Positions 617-54,063 of a stretch of DNA of 64,000 nucleotides are shown piece by piece. Source of the stretch: Candidatus Kaiserbacteria bacterium (GTDB taxonomy: Bacteria > Patescibacteriota > Minisyncoccia > Phycocordibacterales > UBA918); NCBI GenBank assembly GCA_031430855.1, contig JANPCG010000013.1, positions 182,893 to 246,892 on the forward strand, in the 5' to 3' direction. The notes under the pieces are model-generated. The model was not told where the DNA came from. It ran no database searches and saw only the letters and a list, made by a program, of their open reading frames with translations. The first letter of the stretch is position 1, and each line of letters opens with the position of its first letter. The position numbers and the translations under genes are program-made.

Positions 617-2005
617 ATGATCGAAAAGCCCTCAAGAGATTCTTCACCGGAAGCCATTGATGAGTATGTTTTTCCGCAGATAGATCGGGTAAAAATACCG
701 GTGAGTCGTGATGTCCTGCCTGACGCGGATAACATAACTGAGCAGAAGAATAAATTTTTAGCTGGTGACGTTGACGAAATAAACTTTACGTACGAGAAAA
801 ATAAAGACATATGGTATGACGAAAAAGAAATAATTCTCCTTGATCTTAAGCATGAGCTCAGTGTAAGACGAGTTTTTCCGGAAATGATCAGGAAGGAGTA
901 TCTCTATGCAATAAATGAAAGACTTGCAAAAATTAGAATGCTGCGGGAGATTCAATTAGCTGAGAAAGATGGCCGTCAGGAGTATCATGCTCGTCGTTTC
1001 GATGCGTATTCTCGCTTCATATATGGTGGGCCACATCCAGAAATCTTTGCTAATGTCATAGCCACATTACAGAAAAAACTTCAAACAAAAGATGGTACTC
1101 CTGACCTGGTGGTTCAACAAGCATATGATCGACTACAAACAATTATCGAGTCCCATCAAAAACTTGACGTGCCAAATTCAATTCCGCCGTTTCAAGCAGA
1201 TGCGCCAAGTGAAGATACTGAAGATGTATTGGTCAATGCAGAGGAGTTAAAAAGAATATTTGATGAAGCAATTCAGGAGACCAGTCTGTCAGATGGGTGG
1301 AAAGTAATAATCGATTCAACCGGAAAACGTAATCATATTTCAGTAAACGGTGGGGTAAAGAAGATCAGAATACCTAACTCAGAACAGCTTGCCCTTCGAA
1401 TTGGGTCAAAGAAATTAACAAAACAAAAGATACTCGGGTTAATTGAACATGAAATTAAAACGCATGCTTTGAGACATCATAATGGTAGTCGCTCAGAGCT
1501 TAAATTGCTGGGGACTGGATTGAGAAACTACATTGAAGGTGAAGAAGGGTTGGCAACCTATCGTGAGCAGCAGGAAACAAAAGTTGATGATTATGCAGGG
1601 TTTAGTCTCTATTTTGCTGCTGGACTAGCTAAGGGACTCGATGGTGGGGGGGAGCGAGCGTTTGCTGCGGTTCATAAAATTTTAAAAGACTATTTTTTGG
1701 TTAATGAAACTGGTGTAACTGAAAGCGCAGCAGCGCAATCTGCTTGGAATGTATGTTTACGAATATTTAATGGCACACCCGGAAATATTCCTGGAGTAAT
1801 TTTTTCAAAAGATACTGTTTATCGTAAAGGAAATATAGCGACGTGGCAGCTGATGAACGCACATAGCTCAGATGATTTTGAGTTGACACTCAGCATATTG
1901 GATTTTGGAAAATTTGATCAAACGAATGAACGACAACGGCAGGTTGTTGCGTCGGTACGTCAGGGTATTACGAATGAAGCACTAGTTGCTCTTGAGGAAG
2001 AATAG
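617..2005 (+). CDS. DUF1704/MATCAP-like zinc carboxypeptidase (QEGLA-motif family), paralog 1
   Basis: HExxH (HEIKTH) followed by GEEGLATYREQQ and DYAG motifs. C-terminal block RIFNGTPGNIPGVIFSKDTVYRKGNIA is shared with the next ORF. Confidence 0.55.
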   Translation: MIEKPSRDSSPEAIDEYVFPQIDRVKIPVSRDVLPDADNITEQKNKFLAGDVDEINFTYEKNKDIWYDEKEIILLDLKHELSVRRVFPEMIRKEYLYAINERLAKIRMLREIQLAEKDGRQEYHARRFDAYSRFIYGGPHPEIFANVIATLQKKLQTKDGTPDLVVQQAYDRLQTIIESHQKLDVPNSIPPFQADAPSEDTEDVLVNAEELKRIFDEAIQETSLSDGWKVIIDSTGKRNHISVNGGVKKIRIPNSEQLALRIGSKKLTKQKILGLIEHEIKTHALRHHNGSRSELKLLGTGLRNYIEGEEGLATYREQQETKVDDYAGFSLYFAAGLAKGLDGGGERAFAAVHKILKDYFLVNETGVTESAAAQSAWNVCLRIFNGTPGNIPGVIFSKDTVYRKGNIATWQLMNAHSSDDFELTLSILDFGKFDQTNERQRQVVASVRQGITNEALVALEEE

Positions 2006-2031
2006 TTGTACTGTCTTCATGATTATAATCT

Positions 2032-3336
2032 ATGACACACTCACGTAACCTCAATTCACCGTATGATTCATTGATTTTTCCTTATATCTTAAGGAATAAC
2101 TCACAATACAGAAAGCGATTTCACATTAGTAACTACCATGAGTTCAAAGTTAATTTTATTTCAGGTACCGAAATTCCTGTAAAATATGATTTTTTATATG
2201 ATCAGAGGTATGAAAAAAAGCTTCAACGGTTAGTTGAATTAGAGACTAAAATTCTCCCACAATCTAATGTTGGAGAGCTTATTGAAAAGTTATATAAAGC
2301 AAAGATTGTTGAGAAGCGAAAGTTACTCATGCTCGTACGTTCTGCGTACGAGGCGCAGGCAAATACAACTGGTGGCTCAGAAGCTGCTCATATGTTTAAT
2401 CAACTTACGAAAGAAGTATTTGGAGCACCGTCACTTGATGTCTTTCGGCAATTAATGTCTACCATTAATGATGACATTAGTTCAGTTGGTTGGGAGTCAA
2501 AAAATTCTGAAGCGTATCATCGGTTTAGTCAAATTGCGCTGGCGAGCGAGGGTGAAAGCACCATTACAAAATTTACTCCAGCTCCACGTAAAGATTTGAG
2601 TGACCATAGCTCGTTTGTGTCAGAGGCGAACGAAGTGGTAGCCTTTTTTAAAGGGAAAATGTTAGCTCTGGGTTTACATGACTGGGCAGTACAAATTAGC
2701 GATAAACCAATTGAGAGTTTTAGAGTGTATGGAAAAAGGAAAGTACTACTGGTGCCGAAAACAAGTGTTATTAAAAGTCGTAAAAATGAACGACGTCTTT
2801 CCATTGATGTAATGGAAGGCTTGTTTGCTCATGAAGTCCTTACACACGTCATACGTGGTGTAAATGGTGCACAATCTGGACTCCTGTTACTGTCTCATGG
2901 TTTAGCTGGATATTTACCTGGGGAAGAGGGCATTGCAACTTTTCGAGAGCAGCAGTATAGCAGTGCGAAAGATTATGCTGGTAAAACGATGTATTTAGCC
3001 TTAGGCTTGGCCTACGGTCTTGACCGAAATGGACAACCAAGAACATTTAGAGAGGTGTATGAGATTTTAAGTGATTACTTTACCCTAAAGTTTGGCGGTT
3101 TTAGTAAAAAAGTACAAGCAAAAGCTTTTGTAACTTGTGCGAGAATTTTTGTCGTAAGTCCACATCAAAATATCCCTCTTATTTTTACTCGAGACATTGT
3201 CTATCGTGAAGGAAATATTGCAATAAACACTGCCGTACAAGCTGATGATACCCTGCTTGAAATATTTGATGTGGGTAAATTTAATCCCGTAAATACTGAA
3301 CACGTTGCAATACTAAAAAGTCTTAATATTATTTAA
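2032..3336 (+). CDS. DUF1704/MATCAP-like zinc carboxypeptidase, paralog 2
   Basis: HEVLTH plus GEEGIATFREQQ, DYAG and RIFVVSPHQNIPLIFTRDIVYREGNIA. Clear tandem paralog of 617..2005. Confidence 0.55.
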   Translation: MTHSRNLNSPYDSLIFPYILRNNSQYRKRFHISNYHEFKVNFISGTEIPVKYDFLYDQRYEKKLQRLVELETKILPQSNVGELIEKLYKAKIVEKRKLLMLVRSAYEAQANTTGGSEAAHMFNQLTKEVFGAPSLDVFRQLMSTINDDISSVGWESKNSEAYHRFSQIALASEGESTITKFTPAPRKDLSDHSSFVSEANEVVAFFKGKMLALGLHDWAVQISDKPIESFRVYGKRKVLLVPKTSVIKSRKNERRLSIDVMEGLFAHEVLTHVIRGVNGAQSGLLLLSHGLAGYLPGEEGIATFREQQYSSAKDYAGKTMYLALGLAYGLDRNGQPRTFREVYEILSDYFTLKFGGFSKKVQAKAFVTCARIFVVSPHQNIPLIFTRDIVYREGNIAINTAVQADDTLLEIFDVGKFNPVNTEHVAILKSLNII

Positions 3337-4091
3337 TCTCTTAGTACAATAGTTGTTACAACAGTATGATCGTATTTTTTGATACTCTCATATTTAAAAA
3401 GTGTGTCTTTGTGAACACAAAGGAATGCCTGGGTAATACATTTGGATGCTTCTTTTGGTTGTTCAAAAATTAACGTATCTGTGGTTACCTTGTCGGTGTC
3501 GAAGGTGTCGGTTTCATATGATCCGGTAGGAAGCTCAATCGAGCAACCTACGGATAGTTTAAAGAGCGCTAGTCCAATACTGGCATTTATTCCGTAAGGA
3601 TTTCTATCTTTACCATGAGAAATCTTTGAGTAGCCATTTTCTATAGCCCAGACATTCATTAAATATTCGGTATAGAGTGACGGTCCTGCAGGCAAACTAT
3701 TATGCTGCCATTCGTTAGGATAGATTCTGTACGCAAAGGTAAGACTCTTAGTTCTCGCTGCAAAAATAGTTGCTCCAACAGATATGTTGTTTTCCTTTAA
3801 TATAAGTATGTAGTAGGGATATTCAGCTTCTTTTCCTAACGTGGTTGCAAAAATGTCATTAACTTTCGGATTATTTTTAACTTGAATAGTAGCGTTGTAA
3901 AGAGGAGTAAACCACTCAAGATGAGTTGAGGTTAAAAGCTCAATGGAATAAGTGACGGTACTCGATTCAATTTTACGTAACGTGGTTTTTATTCGAGATA
4001 AATGATTTTTGCCAAAACCAGCAAATGCGTCATCGGTAAGTTTTTTTGCCCACATATGATGTGAAGGATACGTTATAATCATGAAAATCAA
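3333..4091 (-). CDS. FemAB/Acetyltransf_6-like GNAT-fold protein (putative aminoacyl or peptidyl transferase)
   Basis: C-terminal pattern LYTEYLMNVWAIENGY...NPYG...GLALFKLSVG resembles the Fem-family LLQWEAIKWAKENGY...GLYRFKKGFG block. Overlaps the stop of 2032..3336 by 4 bp. Confidence 0.45.
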   Translation of the reverse strand: MIFMIITYPSHHMWAKKLTDDAFAGFGKNHLSRIKTTLRKIESSTVTYSIELLTSTHLEWFTPLYNATIQVKNNPKVNDIFATTLGKEAEYPYYILILKENNISVGATIFAARTKSLTFAYRIYPNEWQHNSLPAGPSLYTEYLMNVWAIENGYSKISHGKDRNPYGINASIGLALFKLSVGCSIELPTGSYETDTFDTDKVTTDTLIFEQPKEASKCITQAFLCVHKDTLFKYESIKKYDHTVVTTIVLRD

Positions 4092-4206
4092 TCATAACAG
4101 AATTTATTACCATTGAGGTTAGTGAAAGTATTGTTATTTATAGTAAAATGTGTTATAGTACCGACTCCGAAACATTTAAAAATAAATATTTTTAAACCAC
4201 TACTTT

Positions 4207-5499
4207 TTGCAAATAAACAGATCCGTCATATTTACTTCTATGTCCTCCAAAAAAGCAATTTTGTTTGTTGAGCAGTATATGCCTAAAACACTTAAAAGTG
4301 TGAGGGATTATTTTGGTGATATTACACTCATAGTCTTGCGCGATATCAAAAATGAAAAAAATGAAAAAAACCGGCACTTTAAATCCGCTGATGTCATTTT
4401 ATATGTTGATTTTTCAAAGTCGTACAAAATTGCTGAAGCCCTCCTTCCGTATCAAGAATCGTTAATCGCAGTAACGGCTCGTGGCGAAGATGGTGCTAAC
4501 AAATTACGGGAGGTTATTCCACACGTACCCTATTTGCGCACGCCAACTGCTGAATCACTTGCGTGGGCAACTGATAAGTATGAGATGCGAAAACGTTTCT
4601 GGCTCTACGATAAAAAAATTACTCCAAAATTCACTAAAGTAAAAGAAAATACTAAAATTGAACGAGAACGAATAATACAAAAAATTAATTTTCCGATGGT
4701 CGTAAAACCAGCAAACTTGCAAGAGAGTATGTTGGTTGCAATATGTTTTCATGAAGAAGAATTAGAAAAAGTGTTACGAAATATCTTTCGACGCTTAAAA
4801 TCAGAGTATAAAAAATTCAACCGAACGCAGTTACCTACAATCATTTCAGAAGAGTATATGGATGGAGATATGTACTCTATTGATAGTTATGTAAACTCGC
4901 GAGGTAAAATATTTCATTGCCCGATGGTGCGGGTAAAAACTGGTCGTAACATTGGTCATGATGATTTTTATAATTACTTGCAAATTACACCAACTGCACT
5001 CAAAAAAGAATCAATCGAAAAGGCACATAACGTAGCCGAGCTGGCTGTTCATGCGCTTGGGTTGCGAAGCACTACTGCTCATATTGAATTGATGAAAATA
5101 GATGATGTTTGGAAGGTGATTGAAGTAGGTCCGCGTGTTGGTGGGTTCAGAGACTTACTGCATGAACTAAGTTGTGATATCGATCATTCTCTTAATGATG
5201 TATTAATTCGTGTACCAAAAAAGCCAATCATTCCAAAAAAATGTAAGGGTTTTGCTGCGGCGATGAAATGGTTTGCTAAGACCGAGGGGATTATTACCGA
5301 AATGAAAGGAATCAAAAAAATTGAGCAACTTGAGTCTTTCAATAGTATTGTCTTTAACAAAAAGATTGGTGACCGAGCACTATTCTCTAAAAATGGGGGA
5401 AAATCTATTTTTAACTTGTTTTTATTTAATGCTGACCGGGCAAAGTTACTTGCGGATATTCGCCGCGTTGAACAACTGATAACCATTAAAGTTAAATAA
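4207..5499 (+). CDS. ATP-grasp family ligase
   Basis: EEYMDGDMYSIDSYV and HIELMKIDDVWKVIEVGPRVGG (E-x-N/G-x-R-x-GG Mg/ATP site) are typical of ATP-grasp carboxylate-amine ligases. Confidence 0.7.
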   Translation: MQINRSVIFTSMSSKKAILFVEQYMPKTLKSVRDYFGDITLIVLRDIKNEKNEKNRHFKSADVILYVDFSKSYKIAEALLPYQESLIAVTARGEDGANKLREVIPHVPYLRTPTAESLAWATDKYEMRKRFWLYDKKITPKFTKVKENTKIERERIIQKINFPMVVKPANLQESMLVAICFHEEELEKVLRNIFRRLKSEYKKFNRTQLPTIISEEYMDGDMYSIDSYVNSRGKIFHCPMVRVKTGRNIGHDDFYNYLQITPTALKKESIEKAHNVAELAVHALGLRSTTAHIELMKIDDVWKVIEVGPRVGGFRDLLHELSCDIDHSLNDVLIRVPKKPIIPKKCKGFAAAMKWFAKTEGIITEMKGIKKIEQLESFNSIVFNKKIGDRALFSKNGGKSIFNLFLFNADRAKLLADIRRVEQLITIKVK

Positions 5500-35911: not shown

Positions 35912-36502
35912 ATGATACTGCGGTATTATTACAGCATGAAAAGAAAACGCCGCGCGGTAGTCATGTGGGCAGTTATTTTAGTATTGTTAGGCCAAGCGGT
36001 GACGTTATGGTACTTTGGTCAGCCATTTTTTTGTGAATGTGGAGAGATAAAGGTTTGGGAAGGGGAGGTTGCATCAGCGGGAAATTCACAACAGCTCACG
36101 GATTGGTACACGTTTTCACACATCATTCACGGCGTTTTGTTTTTTGGACTACTGTCACTGTTCGCGAGGCGGATACCTTTCGGATATCGACTTGTTATTG
36201 CCCTCGGTATAGAAGTTGCGTGGGAGGTGTTTGAGAACACGCCGTGGTTAATTAATCACTATCGCCAACAAGCGTTGGCGGCTGGGTATACCGGAGATAG
36301 TATTTTTAATTCAATTTCTGATAGTGTCGCGATGATTATTGGCTTTATTCTTGCGTGGCGGACTCCGGTGTGGGTGAGTGTAGCTTTTGTAATTGCCGCT
36401 GAGCTATTCGTGGCCTTTATGATTCGTGATGGTTTGACGCTTAACATCATTAATCTCATCTATCCGTTTGAATTTATTCGGGCGTGGCAAATTGGTGGGT
36501 AG
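35912..36502 (+). CDS. polytopic membrane protein, hypothetical
   Basis: Four to five hydrophobic helices. Confidence 0.35.
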   Translation: MILRYYYSMKRKRRAVVMWAVILVLLGQAVTLWYFGQPFFCECGEIKVWEGEVASAGNSQQLTDWYTFSHIIHGVLFFGLLSLFARRIPFGYRLVIALGIEVAWEVFENTPWLINHYRQQALAAGYTGDSIFNSISDSVAMIIGFILAWRTPVWVSVAFVIAAELFVAFMIRDGLTLNIINLIYPFEFIRAWQIGG

Positions 36503-36503
36503 G

Positions 36504-37403
36504 TTAGTCTCGTACTACTACTTGCGTGCCCAGATCAGCCCAATTGTAGAGTCTCTCCGCATCTCTAGGATTTACATTCACGCACCCGTGAGAGTATGGT
36601 TTACCAAAACTCTGATGCCAGTACGCCCCGTGAATGACAGCTCCTTCTTTCGTAAAGTATAAATTCCACGGTACTCCGGGAAGGTCATAGTATTGTTTAG
36701 AAATTCCCGGGAGCGGTCCTTGCATATATCGCGTTGGTGTTTTCATGTAGACAGTAAATTCTCCGCGTGGGGTAGGAGTGAGTTCAAGCCCGGTCGAAAT
36801 TTTTATATCTAGGTATATTTCTTCACCGTTGTAGGCTCGCAATGATTGTTCTCCACGGTCTACGATAATTCGTTTACTGGTAGGGGGTGTGGTATTCGAA
36901 ATCCACTGTGGTCCTTTTTCAGTAAAGGGAATAGTAAACTCGCTTGCGATATACCAGTCACCGCCAACTCGTTCAGAATAACGAAGGGTCTCGTCAAAGA
37001 GTATCTTGTACCAAAGGAGACCATCTTTTTCGATAGCTGCATCTGTATCAGCGCGTAAGACCACATCATTTCTAAGCTTTGTGACAACTGCTGCTTCGAG
37101 ACCTGGACCGCTGCGGATTCGCACACAGTCTCCATTAAAATTGTAGTCACAACTACTCGTGACCATGATGTATGACAAGCGGGGGTACACTTCTGATGTT
37201 AGGGGAGGTTTTGTACGTGGTGCAGTGCTAGTGCTCGAGGTCGCTATCGCCGGAGGTTCTGATTGAATTACCGAGACCACTTTTTTAGTTTGAGCTTTTG
37301 GTGTGTCACTGATGATTGTCCATAGAATTAAGGTAATCAAACCAAGGATGAAAAAAATAATAAGTGCTACTAGGTGCCGGGAATAATACTCAAGTCGTGT
37401 CAT
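36504..37403 (-). CDS. L,D-transpeptidase (YkuD fold)
   Basis: Catalytic AIHGAYWHQSFGKPYSHGCVNV motif. N-terminal TM anchor. Confidence 0.8.
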   Translation of the reverse strand: MTRLEYYSRHLVALIIFFILGLITLILWTIISDTPKAQTKKVVSVIQSEPPAIATSSTSTAPRTKPPLTSEVYPRLSYIMVTSSCDYNFNGDCVRIRSGPGLEAAVVTKLRNDVVLRADTDAAIEKDGLLWYKILFDETLRYSERVGGDWYIASEFTIPFTEKGPQWISNTTPPTSKRIIVDRGEQSLRAYNGEEIYLDIKISTGLELTPTPRGEFTVYMKTPTRYMQGPLPGISKQYYDLPGVPWNLYFTKEGAVIHGAYWHQSFGKPYSHGCVNVNPRDAERLYNWADLGTQVVVRD

Positions 37404-48880: not shown

Positions 48881-50800
48881 CTACACAATGCGATCGGGGT
48901 TAATAGTAATTTGAATATAAGGTGGTAAATGTCGCAGAGTCTCTACGACCGTTTTTAGAGCATCGTTGGTATTGAGACGAATGAGGCAATGACGTAACGG
49001 TTGGTTCGGCGTTGAGGTCGGATTGGTGTAGAACTGTCCGGTCACCCCGGTCGGCATAAGGACTCGTTTAATGAGGGCTTCCGTATCAGTCACAATTTGT
49101 TGACTGCCTTGCCAGGACAAGAACACAAACGTTGAAAAGGGAGGATACTTGAGCATTTGGCGTAAATCAATTTCATCATCATGAAAGCGGTCAACGGCAC
49201 CCATCGAGGCATAGAGTAATAAGTCATCTGTTTCGCTCCGGGTTTGGACCATAACCTCGCGAGCAGTTTGTTCGCGCAGGCTCAACATCAAGCGAAACAC
49301 TGACTCATCAGCGCGCCAGGAAGGTACGGTGCGCACCGCATCCAAGGAGACAATCGCCGAGAGGTGAATATTCGAAGGAAAATACGGCATCACCATTTGT
49401 GTCCCTAAAAGGATAGCGCCTTTCTGTTTTTCAAACTCGGCTTTCATTCCCGCACTTCGTTTGTGAGTGGTGGCTGTGGTGTGGTCAAAAACCGTCAGGG
49501 GTACTTGGGGGAACTTCTTGCGGCATTCATCTTCCACTTGCTGAATCCCAATCCCACGTTCGCGCAGTCGCCACGAACCACACTGTGCGCAGGTGTCAGC
49601 AGCACGCACTCGCCTGCCCGAAGTAGAGGAAATGAACCAGCGTTCTTCGGCGCCGTCAGCCGCGCGAGAACGAATGAGAGAATAGGGAGTGTTCGAATCA
49701 GGACAGCGAAAAATATAGCCACAATCAAAACATGCAACAACGGGTGCGAGGCCTCGCCTCGCAGCGTAGAGGAATACATTATGACGTCCCTCGAGAGTGG
49801 TTTTAATACGGGTAACCAATTCAGGACTAAAAAGTTGAAATGGTGTTTCGGTAGTCGGTTTGTCCGTTTGACTAATTATGGTTAATTTGGCAGGTAGAGA
49901 AAGCCGCTTGGGGTGCTCTCCGTGGGTTTGATAGATATCTTCGCGACGTTTGTACTCATCCTCAGTCCGGGTCAGGGTATCACCTAAAATTATGGTTCGA
50001 CCTGACACTTTGGCGAGGATTTTAAGTACCTCACGATGATCGAGGTTTGGGCGAGTACGCATCACATAGTGCGGACTGGCTGCTTCATCAATAATAATTG
50101 TGGTGAAGTCTGGTCGATCGAGGTAGGCAAAACTCGGAGTGGCGATTGTTAATGTAGCGCGCGAGAGATCTCCAAACGCTGCGTACGCTTTTTGTCGTTC
50201 ACTTTTACTCTGGGTACTGGAGAAACGAATCACCCGTTCAGCAATTCCATGAGAGAGCGACTCATACGCTGCGTTGACTTGTGGGCTAGTTGGCACGACC
50301 AGCAGTACCGAACCTCGATGAGCAAAGGCACTCCGAATGGCGCTCTGGTAGCTCACGAATCGTTCGGCGGTTGGTGCAGAGAGTATTTGTGGAATGCTGT
50401 CTTCATTACCTAAACTGGTTCCGCTATTCGGAAATGGTAAATCACCACTCCTCACGTCGGGTGGTAAAAGGGCATACAGCAGGGCACCTTTTTTGGCTGG
50501 CACGACGGCGACGAGTTCATCAACAGCAGAGAGTAGGGTGCCCGAGATGCTGGTCGTGCTTGTTTGTGGTGGTAGTTTACGTAACGAAAACGTGGCTGCC
50601 TTCAAGGCAGTTTTTGTACTCGATACGGGATTACTATCAACCACAATACCCTGCATAGTTTTGCCTCGAACGGGGATTGTGACAATTGCTCCAAGCTGAT
50701 ACGTGGTGCTTGAGAAGTACGATAACGAGTCAATATGTGTGCCGCGGACGAGGGGAATGACTTCAATAACGAACATTAGGGGTAGTATACCAATAAGCAA
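48881..50800 (-). CDS. priA: primosomal protein N' (PriA)-like, helicase motifs apparently degenerate
   Basis: C4 zinc ribbon CFDCGY...CAQCGSW. LLVVPTSPQ and IIIDEAASPHY align to PriA motifs Ia and II, but no GxGKT Walker A was found and DEEH reads DEAA. Confidence 0.5.
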   Translation of the reverse strand: MLIGILPLMFVIEVIPLVRGTHIDSLSYFSSTTYQLGAIVTIPVRGKTMQGIVVDSNPVSSTKTALKAATFSLRKLPPQTSTTSISGTLLSAVDELVAVVPAKKGALLYALLPPDVRSGDLPFPNSGTSLGNEDSIPQILSAPTAERFVSYQSAIRSAFAHRGSVLLVVPTSPQVNAAYESLSHGIAERVIRFSSTQSKSERQKAYAAFGDLSRATLTIATPSFAYLDRPDFTTIIIDEAASPHYVMRTRPNLDHREVLKILAKVSGRTIILGDTLTRTEDEYKRREDIYQTHGEHPKRLSLPAKLTIISQTDKPTTETPFQLFSPELVTRIKTTLEGRHNVFLYAARRGLAPVVACFDCGYIFRCPDSNTPYSLIRSRAADGAEERWFISSTSGRRVRAADTCAQCGSWRLRERGIGIQQVEDECRKKFPQVPLTVFDHTTATTHKRSAGMKAEFEKQKGAILLGTQMVMPYFPSNIHLSAIVSLDAVRTVPSWRADESVFRLMLSLREQTAREVMVQTRSETDDLLLYASMGAVDRFHDDEIDLRQMLKYPPFSTFVFLSWQGSQQIVTDTEALIKRVLMPTGVTGQFYTNPTSTPNQPLRHCLIRLNTNDALKTVVETLRHLPPYIQITINPDRIV

Positions 50801-50884: not shown

Positions 50885-51403
50885 TCAGAATGGTATTTCG
50901 TCCTCGCCGTCATCCTCGTAGACTGGCGGGTTATCAATTCGGTATTTGATTTCAGTGACCATCGCCTCAAAGTCAAAGTCCGCGATGGATTTCCACATCC
51001 GCCGACGGGATTTGGTATACGGATTGTCTTGCAAGTGGAGGTATTCTCCGTACCGCGGCAGCCACATGACTTTATCGAAGGTGTCTCTTGGGCCAATAAA
51101 GATTTCCTCGTACGCTCCGCCTTGGTACGTTACATGTACCTTGTACCCACTAAAGCGAGGAATGTTCGAGCGTAAGACCTCTGTGGTAAGTGTAAGCTGC
51201 CGCATGTTCGCAGCCGCCTTCAACTTTTCGGTAACAATGGCCGCCGTCGCTGTCGCTTGCTCGTAATTGAATTCACTGCGGATGCGGCGCAGTGCTGATT
51301 CCCCGCGACTCACAAACGAACCGAGACCTTGCTTCGACTTCCATTCTTTATGAATGTTCCGGATAGCTGTACGGAACAATTTATTCATGCGCTGTTCGTC
51401 CAT
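50885..51403 (-). CDS. hypothetical protein
   Basis: 172 aa, no family. Co-directional and upstream of the priA-like gene. Confidence 0.35.
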   Translation of the reverse strand: MDEQRMNKLFRTAIRNIHKEWKSKQGLGSFVSRGESALRRIRSEFNYEQATATAAIVTEKLKAAANMRQLTLTTEVLRSNIPRFSGYKVHVTYQGGAYEEIFIGPRDTFDKVMWLPRYGEYLHLQDNPYTKSRRRMWKSIADFDFEAMVTEIKYRIDNPPVYEDDGEDEIPF

Positions 51404-51463: not shown

Positions 51464-52963
51464 CTAGAACTCGTCGAGATAGTTGATTTGTGCTCCCAGG
51501 CTTGCGAGGCGCGCAACGAGGTTCTCGTACCCGCGATTGATACTGTAGATGTTGCGCAGGACTGAACGTCCTTGGGCGCCGAGCATGGCAATTAAGAGGA
51601 TGGTAGCGGGTCGGAGGGCTGGTGGGCAGATGAGTTCAGCGGCACGGAGTGAGGTCGGGCCCGTGATATAGATTCGGTGTGGGTCGGCGAGCACCGTATC
51701 AGCGCCAAGCTTCTCAAGTTCGGTAAAATATATCGCTCGCTTTTCATACATCCAGTCATGAATAAGGGTCTGTCCACTGGCTTGGGTCGCTATGACGGCA
51801 AAGAAGGGGAGATTATCTGCGTTAAGACCCGGGTATGGACGCGAGTGTACTTTCTCAGGCGAAGCATGTAGTTTGCTCGGTTTGATTTTGAGGTCGACTA
51901 ATTTGGTCTGGCCATTATGGGAAAAATACGGTTTTGTGGCAGTATATTGTAATCCCATTTTTTCAAGGACTAAGAGCTCTAGTTCAAGAAATTCAATCGG
52001 AGCGCGTGTGATAGTAATAGCTGAGTTTGTGACAATCGCTGCTGCAATAAAGAACATACTATCAGTTGGGTCTTCAGCGAGGGTGTATTCAAGATTCTGG
52101 TGAATATCAGAAACGCCGGTGACAGTAAGCGTGGTGGTACCAATGCCGTCAATCTGAACGCCAAACAATTTTAAGAATACACAGATCTCCTGCACCATGT
52201 AGTTTGCTGATGCATATTTAATAATGGTGGTGCTCGGTGTCCGGGCCGCGGCAAAAAGTGCATTTTCGGTTACGGTATCGCCTGATTCATAGAGAATAAT
52301 CTCAGTCGGCTTTTTTGCGTCGTATTGCACCTTAAAGGCATCTTCGGTGGTTTCTATGCTCACGCCAAAATGCTCCAGGGCATAAAAATGAGGACGCACG
52401 GTACGACTCCCGAGCTTGCAACCACCGGATTGGGGGAGCGAGAACTGATTAAAGGTGTGAATCAGTGATCCAATAAACATGACAATACTGCGAGTCTTGC
52501 GCGCCGCCTCAATATTAATTTTTTTGAGGTCATATTTTTTAGGTGGTTCAAGGGTGAGAGTGCTTCCGGTCCACGTAATGCGCATTCCAATACTCTCGAG
52601 AACTTCGACGATGCGGTATACCTCTTCGATTTTTGGCATATGGTGCAAAGTGGTCGTGCCGCGATTCAAGAGTGATGCGCACAAGAGCCCCACAGCTCCA
52701 TTTTTGCTCGTATTTGTTTCAATGGTGCCTGACAATTTCTTTTGGCCGACAATTTCTACATTCACGGTCCCGGGGGAAAGGGTAATCAGGTTTTTGCCGA
52801 GGGCATGACTGATTTTCTTTAACATCTCGGCACTAATGTTCTGAGTGCCTGATTCGAGGCGTGCGACGGCACTTTGGGTTGTTTTTAGTTTTTTTGCTAA
52901 CGCCGTTTGGGTGAGTCCAACTGATTCCCGCAAATCCGAGATACGATTACCGATGTTTTCCAT
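51464..52963 (-). CDS. murA: XRE-type HTH domain fused to UDP-GlcNAc 1-carboxyvinyltransferase (MurA/EPT fold)
   Basis: N-terminal LTQTALAKKLKTTQSAVARLESG (HTH_XRE), then MurA-like KLSGTIETNTSKNGAVGLL and active-site Cys in SGGCKLGSR. Start set at MENIGN; the ORF extends to 53044. Confidence 0.6.
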   Translation of the reverse strand: MENIGNRISDLRESVGLTQTALAKKLKTTQSAVARLESGTQNISAEMLKKISHALGKNLITLSPGTVNVEIVGQKKLSGTIETNTSKNGAVGLLCASLLNRGTTTLHHMPKIEEVYRIVEVLESIGMRITWTGSTLTLEPPKKYDLKKINIEAARKTRSIVMFIGSLIHTFNQFSLPQSGGCKLGSRTVRPHFYALEHFGVSIETTEDAFKVQYDAKKPTEIILYESGDTVTENALFAAARTPSTTIIKYASANYMVQEICVFLKLFGVQIDGIGTTTLTVTGVSDIHQNLEYTLAEDPTDSMFFIAAAIVTNSAITITRAPIEFLELELLVLEKMGLQYTATKPYFSHNGQTKLVDLKIKPSKLHASPEKVHSRPYPGLNADNLPFFAVIATQASGQTLIHDWMYEKRAIYFTELEKLGADTVLADPHRIYITGPTSLRAAELICPPALRPATILLIAMLGAQGRSVLRNIYSINRGYENLVARLASLGAQINYLDEF

Positions 52964-53049
52964 ATTTTTACAACATAGCATATCTGCTATGTTGGTGTCA
53001 TTGTTATAATGGTGGAAAACCAGTGGTGGTGGTACACTGTGCACGCTAT

Positions 53050-54063
53050 ATGTTTGATAGATTTACGCCCAAAGTTGGCATCGATCTCGGTACCACGAGT
53101 GTGTTGGTATTTGTGCCTGGACAGGGCATAGTGCTGAACGAGCCGTCGGTAGTTGCTGTCGGTGAAAACAACCAAGTCTTGGCCGTCGGAGCCGAAGCCA
53201 AGCGCATGATTGGACGAACTCCCGAGAGTATTCGAGCTTATCGTCCGATGAAAGACGGCGTAATTGCTGATTACCGCGTGACCGAGGCGATGTTACGTTA
53301 CTTCCTTGGTAAGGCGCTCAGTCGTTACAATCTCTTTAAACCTGATGTGATGGTGTCGGTACCGGCGGGAGTGACCTCGACTGAACGTCGAGCCGTGGTA
53401 GAAGCTACGATTAAAGCGGGCGCTCGCAATGCCTACGTGGTCAAGGAGCCAATTCTTGCCGCCATTGGTGCCGGGGTTCCGATCTATGAGCCGCAGGGCC
53501 ACATGATTGTCGATATTGGCGGTGGCACAACTGACGTGGCGGTTATATCGCTTGGTGGAATTGTAGCGTCTAATTCAGTCAAATGTGCGGGCAATCGGAT
53601 TGATGCCGCTATCATCAACTTTGTGAAAAAATCACGAAATCTCTCAATCGGAGAAAAGACGGCGGAAGAAGTAAAAATTAAAGTCGGGTCGGCCCTACCC
53701 CTCGAGGAGGAGTTGGTCATGGATCTCAAAGGTCGAGATGTGTTCACGGGGCTACCGCGTACGACTGAAATCCGGACAAATGAAGTCGTGCGAGCAATCT
53801 CAGGCGAGTTACGAGAAATGATTAAAGCAATCAAAGATGTATTTCAAGACACTCCACCCGAGTTGGCGTCAGATATTATTGATGGCGGGATTATTATGAC
53901 GGGAGGTACGTCACAGCTGCGCAATTTTCCCGAGTTAGTAAAACGCCGGACAGGCGTTAAGGCACAGCTTGCGGACCAGGCCTTGTTTTGTGTGGTGAAG
54001 GGGACGGGAGTGGCTTTGGAACATCTGGCTACCTACAAACGCGCCATCCTCACAAAACGTTAA
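53050..54063 (+). CDS. mreB: rod shape-determining protein MreB
   Basis: VGIDLGTTSVLV phosphate-1 motif. Actin-fold, 337 aa. Confidence 0.9.
   Translation: MFDRFTPKVGIDLGTTSVLVFVPGQGIVLNEPSVVAVGENNQVLAVGAEAKRMIGRTPESIRAYRPMKDGVIADYRVTEAMLRYFLGKALSRYNLFKPDVMVSVPAGVTSTERRAVVEATIKAGARNAYVVKEPILAAIGAGVPIYEPQGHMIVDIGGGTTDVAVISLGGIVASNSVKCAGNRIDAAIINFVKKSRNLSIGEKTAEEVKIKVGSALPLEEELVMDLKGRDVFTGLPRTTEIRTNEVVRAISGELREMIKAIKDVFQDTPPELASDIIDGGIIMTGGTSQLRNFPELVKRRTGVKAQLADQALFCVVKGTGVALEHLATYKRAILTKR

Follow-up and report, generated by a model that had tools for sequence, protein, structure and literature searches.

Locus structure and domain composition of the fusion protein

We analysed a 64,000-nucleotide stretch (the window) of contig JANPCG010000013.1 from a Candidatus Kaiserbacteria bacterium, focusing on a minus-strand gene at 51464..52963 whose product joins a helix-turn-helix (HTH) domain to the enolpyruvyl transferase MurA (EC 2.5.1.7), the first committed enzyme of cell-wall (peptidoglycan) synthesis. 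The gene was defined from the list of open reading frames (ORFs), Pfam, NCBIfam and the architecture of its homologues. It starts with ATG (MENIGNRI...) and encodes 499 amino acids (aa) plus a stop codon, one residue fewer than the 500 counted in an earlier note made from the sequence alone; both peptides quoted in that note, LTQTALAKKLKTTQSAVARLESG and GGCKLGSR, were found in this ORF. On the plus strand, the divergent neighbour mreB occupies 53050..54063 (MreB_Mbl, E = 2.5e-128; NF010539, 434 bits), and the two start codons are separated by 86 bp (52964-53049), close to the approximately 85 bp given earlier. The earlier note had also assumed that the next in-frame methionine would carry the ORF into mreB. 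That ATG (MLCCKN, at 52981) instead falls within the palindrome described below, short of mreB, and only a mechanical GTG start at 53044 overlaps a mechanical GTG extension of the mreB ORF. The choice of the shorter start is supported, since the homologues are 499-500 aa long and begin at the MENIG position.

The protein was divided into an XRE/Cro-C1 type HTH domain (aa 1-55; 52799..52963, minus strand), a flexible linker (aa 56-67; 52763..52798, minus strand) and a MurA domain (aa 68-499; 51467..52762, minus strand). Scanning of the whole protein against Pfam placed HTH_3 at aa 9-59 (E = 1.3e-14, 54 bits, cut-off 23) and EPSP_synthase (PF00275) at aa 73-485 (E = 1.5e-43), and the HTH region scanned alone gave 57 bits against HTH_3 (E = 2.1e-15, cut-off 23). 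The match to the NCBIfam model NF006015 was confined to the HTH. An AlphaFold2 (AF2) model built on a 100-sequence alignment had a mean predicted local distance difference test (pLDDT) score of 92.4, with a confident MurA fold. In this model the HTH helices span aa 4-14, 19-26, 30-38 and 45-55, with TTQSAVARLE as the recognition helix, and the linker was delimited by a drop in pLDDT to 63-74, falling below 50 at aa 62-64. The N-terminal XRE/Cro HTH proposed from the sequence is thus supported both by an HTH_3 score above the gathering threshold and by four modelled helices within aa 4-55.

Conservation and distribution of the fusion

The best 120 matches among 5.8 billion proteins all showed the HTH plus EPSP architecture (120/120; 483-536 aa, 77-100% identity) and were drawn from numerous separate assemblies, whose labels were Kaiserbacteria, Paceibacteria, Nomurabacteria or Parcubacteria. 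A scan with one genome per GTDB species found a relative encoded in 250 genomes, and 77 of the 80 loci retrieved from these genomes carried the fusion architecture. The recurrence of the same architecture in both sets ruled out a frameshift or misassembly and confirmed that the fusion is conserved in related genomes. Its hosts within the Candidate Phyla Radiation (CPR) are Kaiserbacteria and other Paceibacteria. A search of 1.84 billion cluster representatives extended the fusions down to approximately 30% identity and recovered a 246-member cluster, 53% identical, from cultured Nonomuraea actinomycetes. Public annotations call the fusion either MurA or "helix-turn-helix domain-containing protein", and full-text literature searches returned no description of an HTH-MurA fusion.

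The retrieved loci were grouped into clade A (L001-L072), comprising the fusions L001-L069 and the HTH-less L070-L072, and clade B (L073-L080), whose fusions are 57-60% identical to the window protein. The HTH-less members are three Kaiserbacteria with a MurA that is 76% identical and sits in the same slot between mreB and priA; no detached HTH gene was found near the MurA gene in these three loci. The presence of HTH-less orthologues at the same position indicates that the locus is a murA locus and that the enzyme domain serves a function independent of the HTH.

The enzyme domain retains the core catalytic residues of MurA

To assign the enzyme domain, we combined profile scans, PDB sequence matches, Foldseek and residue mapping. 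The best-scoring NCBIfam models were those for MurA: the fusion passed the cut-off of the subfamily model NF006873 (311 bits, cut-off 297) but stayed under those of NF009470 (211 bits, cut-off 552) and of the equivalog model TIGR01072 (see below). Its best PDB sequence matches were MurA (E = 3.7e-50), and the top Foldseek matches in PDB were all MurA, with target-normalised template modelling scores of 0.91-0.93; an N-terminal HTH was absent from all MurA structures matched in PDB by either search. An identity as AroA (EPSP synthase) was rejected, with TIGR01356 reaching 81 bits against a cut-off of 287 and AroA structures ranking under all MurA structures.

The GGCKLGSR motif aligned with GGCAIGQR or GGCAIGSR of solved MurAs. 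With Escherichia coli MurA (sequence verified identical to 1UAE) as the mapping reference, the catalytic and substrate residues in the fusion were K87/N88 (K22/N23), R158 (R91), C182 (C115), R187 (R120), D383 (D305), R409 (R331), R451 (R371) and R477 (R397). The codon for C182, equivalent to the catalytic, fosfomycin-targeted Cys115, lies at 52418..52420 on the minus strand (gca on the plus strand, TGC on the gene strand). These nine equivalents (K22, N23, R91, C115, R120, D305, R331, R371 and R397) were invariant in 146 close fusion-family sequences, namely those of clade A, clade B and Nonomuraea; one more sequence in the alignment, the 147th, is a known pseudoenzyme member. Comparison with MurA and AroA, as the earlier note had recommended, placed the protein in the MurA family with the Cys115, Asp305 and Lys22 equivalents kept, and the complete MurA fold with its active-site cysteine context was likewise upheld by Pfam, the AF2 model, Foldseek and residue mapping. 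In a neighbour-joining (NJ) tree, all fusions and a few HTH-less relatives formed one MurA subclade. No second MurA-like gene was found in the 64-kb window or in loci L001-L080.

Compared with canonical MurA (1UAE and the other solved MurAs), the fusion shares the fold and the catalytic Lys, Asn, Cys, Asp and Arg set, but it carries approximately 67 extra N-terminal residues (HTH plus linker), lacks the Asp at position 369 and belongs to a distinct subclade. On these sequence and model comparisons, the fusion is apparently an active MurA.

A conserved palindrome overlaps the predicted promoter of the fusion gene

Inverted-repeat search and conservation identified a candidate operator between the fusion gene and mreB, with a 16-bp core palindrome, ATAGCA-N4-TGCTAT, at 52975-52990 (extended, 52971..52994). 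In the window genome its arms extend to 10 nucleotides (nt), CAACATAGCA / TGCTATGTTG, and no other perfect ATAGC-N6-GCTAT site occurs in the 64 kb. A one-mismatch match at 36392-36407 is within chance expectation for the window; it lies about 100 nt from a YkuD-type L,D-transpeptidase gene (36504-37403, minus strand), past its stop codon.

Exactly one palindrome per locus, always upstream of the fusion, was present in 68 of the 69 clade A fusion loci (L001-L069, those with upstream DNA), and across related loci it had by far the highest information content in an otherwise variable murA-mreB intergenic region. Within clade A, the distance from the operator to the fusion start was mostly 9-16 nt, whereas the distance to the mreB start ranged from 47 to 2859 nt. 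This near-fixed spacing to murA and variable spacing to mreB indicate that the operator belongs to murA and not to mreB.

A promoter scan, together with the conserved overlap at the -10 element, placed the predicted fusion promoter at 52972..53001 on the minus strand, with a -35 element ATGACA (53001-52996), an 18-nt spacer and a TG-extended -10 element TATGTT (52977-52972). The -10 element overlaps the promoter-proximal half-site of the operator and ends 8 nt before the ATG; related loci show the same overlap and a similarly short stretch to the start codon. This arrangement suggests autorepression and a leaderless or near-leaderless mRNA; given the transcription start site that we infer, the fusion mRNA is probably leaderless or nearly so. 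Six loci (L004, L005, L022, L030, L047 and L058) carry 110-250 nt inserted between the operator and the fusion start, which could be 5' leaders or small inserted elements; no Rfam match was found in these loci.

The candidate operator co-varies with the HTH domain

The palindrome was missing from the three HTH-less loci (L070-L072), of which L070 retains only a half doubling as the -10 element. In clade B the operator reads ATATCA-N4-TGATAT, with the variant ATCTCA-N4-TGAGAT in L078. A catalytically intact fusion, 53% identical, was located in Nonomuraea sp. NEAU-A123 (L081, 7972-9530, JAHFZZ010000002.1), and there the operator is ATCTCA-TATG-TGAGAT, 13 nt upstream of the ATG in DNA of 68-70% GC, with the -10-to-ATG spacing maintained (TATGTTGT-N6-ATG). 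Among the distant fusions, L082, L083 and L087 carry a perfect ATATCA-N4-TGATAT, and L085 (ATAACA-N4-TGCTAT) and L086 carry one-mismatch versions. Changes in one half-site are accompanied by changes in the other, the pattern that binding by a symmetric dimer would produce.

Throughout the fusion family the recognition helix hardly varies and follows the pattern T(T/S)QSA(V/I)xR(I/L/M)E. Helices with TTQ pair with ATAGCA; for those with TSQ the partner is in most cases ATATCA or ATCTCA, with L085 as an exception. The earlier note had proposed that MurA is coupled to transcriptional control, and the palindrome over the gene's own -10 element, its loss together with the HTH and the co-variation of its half-sites lend comparative support to such coupling.

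The AT-rich operator ATCTCATATGTGAGAT is preserved in the Nonomuraea locus L081, where the fusion gene adjoins a phage-type integrase gene. Acquisition of the Nonomuraea fusion by old horizontal transfer is suggested. One candidate, P0126 (44% identity, 529 aa), resembled a fusion in length, but it had no Pfam HTH and no operator and was rejected.

The same palindrome occurs at antitoxin-type XRE operons

The exact 18-mer TATAGCATATATGCTATA was matched at at least 120 metagenome loci (L089-L208). Among the matches listed, a related XRE HTH gene lay within 1.2 kb of 78 of the 122 sites, and for 76 of those 78 genes transcription led away from the site; of 86 control points on these contigs, 2 had such a gene. 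Most of the XRE neighbours are HTH_3 proteins of 90-130 aa, often with a Gp49 (HigB-like) gene before them, an arrangement resembling that of toxin-antitoxin operons. The HTH consensus of these proteins, GLTQKELAKKIGTKQSVISRLESG, is very close to the GLTQTALAKKLKTTQSAVARLESG of the window protein. The 18-mer thus seems to be an operator in wide use within one XRE subfamily.

HigA-type XRE antitoxins with Gp49 toxins carry the recognition helix TKQSVISRLESG, against TTQSAVARLESG in the fusion, and have an identical 18-bp palindrome at their own promoters. The near-identical helix and the shared site point to the palindrome as the cognate operator of an XRE subfamily that would include the HTH of the fusion, which strongly supports DNA binding by the fusion and hints at the origin of its HTH. 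The antitoxins differ from the fusion in that they are 90-130 aa long and usually preceded by a toxin gene, whereas the fusion HTH is covalently joined to a housekeeping enzyme. Membership of the fusion in a type II antitoxin system was rejected, as its neighbours are mreB, a 172-aa ORF and priA, with no Gp49 gene adjacent.

A distant branch has lost the catalytic residues

Seven distant members at 30-40% identity (P0132, P0133, P0137, P0144, P0146, P0234 and P0249) have lost C115, R120, R91 and other catalytic residues. The distant members for which DNA was retrieved keep the HTH and the operator, the latter imperfect in L085 and L086; these HTH-MurA-like loci are L082 (95-5003), L083 (3558-7503), L085 (2714-6740), L086 (4735-7554) and L087 (3388-7467). 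A plain murA lies divergent to the genes for P0132, P0133 and P0137, and Mur ligase or Ddl genes follow in all three of their loci, with murB directly downstream of murA in the P0133 and P0137 loci. Listed by locus, the three fusions divergent to a plain murA are those of L082, L083 and L085, with murB directly downstream in L083 and L085 and a Mur ligase in L082; the remaining two loci are operons with murB/RelA-SpoT or NUDIX/nucleotidyltransferase genes. P0249 comes after murB and a RelA/SpoT gene, and P0144 ends a NUDIX-nucleotidyltransferase operon with operator-like sites. In the NJ tree, the plain MurAs beside distant members belong to a different, distant MurA clade.

These distant fusions look like pseudoenzyme regulators of cell-wall precursor genes, which suggests that the MurA fold may serve as a sensor. 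Because the scaffold seems also to have become a dedicated regulator, it is more credible that the HTH acts in regulation in the active fusions as well. The closest parallel for this branch is provided by BzdR-type regulators, in which an XRE HTH is likewise joined to a domain of enzymatic origin, here a shikimate-kinase-like sensor domain. The sensor fold of that type differs from that of the fusion, and the enzyme domain of the fusion still looks active.

Proposed mechanism and alternative explanations

We consider it probable (roughly 0.75) that the window protein is a bifunctional, autorepressing trigger enzyme, in which an HTH and a competent MurA share one chain and the HTH binds the palindrome at its own promoter. 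The HTH would be tethered by a flexible linker of about 12 residues to a catalytically competent UDP-N-acetylglucosamine (UDP-GlcNAc) enolpyruvyl transferase, and two HTH domains, acting as a dimer, would bind ATAGCA-N4-TGCTAT. The half-site centres are 10 bp apart, which would place both on one face of the helix. As the palindrome lies between the -35 and -10 elements and overlaps the latter, bound protein would block RNA polymerase, and the resulting negative autoregulation would keep the MurA concentration constant.

A more tentative extension of this proposal is that the ligand state of MurA gates dimerisation of the HTH on the palindrome, so that the protein would be enzyme and precursor-flux sensor in one, and that the scaffold repeatedly became dead, UDP-sugar-sensing regulators. 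The shift between open and closed forms with UDP-GlcNAc, phosphoenolpyruvate or UDP-N-acetylmuramic acid (UDP-MurNAc) would then gate DNA binding, giving a one-component feedback sensor. This idea draws on the related fusions that retain fold, HTH and operator without catalysis.

Several points weigh against the autorepressing-enzyme reading. The fusion stayed under the cut-off of the murA equivalog model TIGR01072 (301 bits, cut-off 392.7), and the D369 equivalent is not Asp but Ala or Pro across the whole MurA subclade, HTH-less members included. Canonical MurA is generally treated as a monomer, whereas the palindrome needs a dimer. One clade B locus, L079, has no site directly upstream. Among the 122 exact 18-mer sites in the matches listed, only 8 are abutted by an HTH-MurA gene; the palindrome is thus not specific to MurA fusions, and another XRE protein could in principle bind it. 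Those fusion relatives that have a plain MurA next door are pseudoenzymes, and the scan for a second MurA covered only the 64-kb window and loci L001-L080. Finally, we infer DNA binding, repression rather than activation, enzymatic activity and dimerisation alike from sequence-level evidence.

Some of these points would favour a protein that is purely a regulator, its MurA-like domain only sensing ligand or dimerising and a separate plain MurA performing the chemistry. Such a protein would resemble the related fusions that keep HTH and operator without catalytic residues, three of which (P0132, P0133 and P0137) stand divergent to a plain murA, and it would fit the score under the equivalog cut-off and the absence of the D369 equivalent. 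Being an actinomycete, Nonomuraea should possess a canonical MurA already, and its fusion copy is catalytically intact as well, so that intact residues are no proof of sole-enzyme status. Against this stand the nine core catalytic residues, invariant in the 146 sequences and decayed where a plain MurA adjoins, together with the HTH-less orthologues at the identical locus, in which the domain functions without an HTH, and the lack of a second MurA-like gene in the regions scanned. We therefore regard a purely regulatory role as unlikely for the window protein.

Two further explanations concern the HTH itself. RodZ binds MreB through an XRE-type HTH, and the HTH of the fusion might likewise bind MreB instead of DNA and recruit MurA to MreB filaments. 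A divergent mreB is indeed present in 71 of the 72 clade A loci (the exception starts too near a contig end), and RodZ resembles the fusion in having an N-terminal XRE-like HTH in a cell-wall and shape context. The fusion, however, reached only 13 bits against HTH_25 (cut-off 24.6) compared with 57 bits for HTH_3, and it has no transmembrane segment and no membrane anchor. No mreB gene adjoins the fusions of clade B, of Nonomuraea or of the distant loci L082-L087, the three HTH-less MurA loci keep the mreB synteny, and a co-varying promoter palindrome is what a DNA-binding HTH predicts. A tether to MreB is thus very improbable. The HTH could also be an artefact of misassembly or frameshift, or the remains, now without function, of an antitoxin gene that was captured, as might be supposed from its closeness to antitoxin-type XRE domains and their common operator. 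The architecture recurs, however, in hundreds of independent assemblies as well as in isolate genomes, and HTH and operator are conserved from 100% down to approximately 30% enzyme-domain identity, which is incompatible with neutral decay; we give this explanation almost no weight.

Gene neighbourhood

The mreB adjacency is lineage-specific synteny, given that it is kept in the HTH-less loci and not seen in the other clades of fusions; it provides context, not mechanism. A -10-like element upstream of mreB, TGGTACACT, was read from the sequence at 53030..53038 (plus strand), clear of the operator, and was not listed by the promoter scan. Related loci share a -10-like TGnTAC(A/T)(C/A)T at 10-15 nt before mreB. 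The motif GTGGAAAA at 53012-53019 (read in mreB orientation) is conserved too, and the two elements together suggest that the intergenic region contains a second promoter, with a near-leaderless transcript.

Downstream of murA lies a gene for a divergent PriA of 639 aa (48881-50800, minus strand; TIGR00595, 169 bits, under the cut-off of 230; no Pfam match), which is syntenic in nearly all clade A loci and may be co-transcribed with murA. Between the two genes, a 172-aa ORF without a family match (50885-51403, minus strand) was found in few related loci (L005 and L007; weakly L027 and L051). Elsewhere in the window, the plus-strand region 617-5499 encodes two paralogous MATCAP-like (PF08014) proteins and, after one opposite-strand ORF, an ATP-grasp protein, a peptidase/ligase pairing unusual for a small CPR genome.

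Relation to known trigger enzymes and significance

Like the trigger enzymes BirA, PutA and NadR, the fusion unites a predicted DNA-binding domain and an apparently active pathway enzyme in one chain. Those proteins also have an operator at their own or a pathway promoter, a feature that the fusion shares at sequence level only, and the target of PutA is likewise a divergent promoter region. They differ from the fusion in using winged HTH or ribbon-helix-helix folds in place of a Cro/XRE HTH_3 domain, and in their enzymes and pathways. BirA is both the biotin protein ligase and the repressor of the bio operon, and its reaction intermediate drives dimerisation and DNA binding; a corresponding ligand control would be conjectural for the fusion.

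MurA is the target of fosfomycin and the gatekeeper of peptidoglycan synthesis, and control of its level and activity is an active question. To our knowledge, the known controls of MurA are post-translational: ClpCP/ReoM proteolysis in Firmicutes, MurA-LpxC coupling in Pseudomonas and feedback by UDP-MurNAc. With an intact copy and the same operator present in cultured Nonomuraea species, a direct test of the hypothesis does not depend on cultivating a CPR organism. The natural series from plain MurA, through the active fusion, to a pseudoenzyme regulator beside a plain murA should be useful for studying how an enzyme evolves into a sensor. If the proposal is correct, a central cell-wall enzyme would join the short list of trigger enzymes, and these bacteria would possess a direct transcriptional feedback loop on MurA, fitting the regulator-poor genomes of the CPR.

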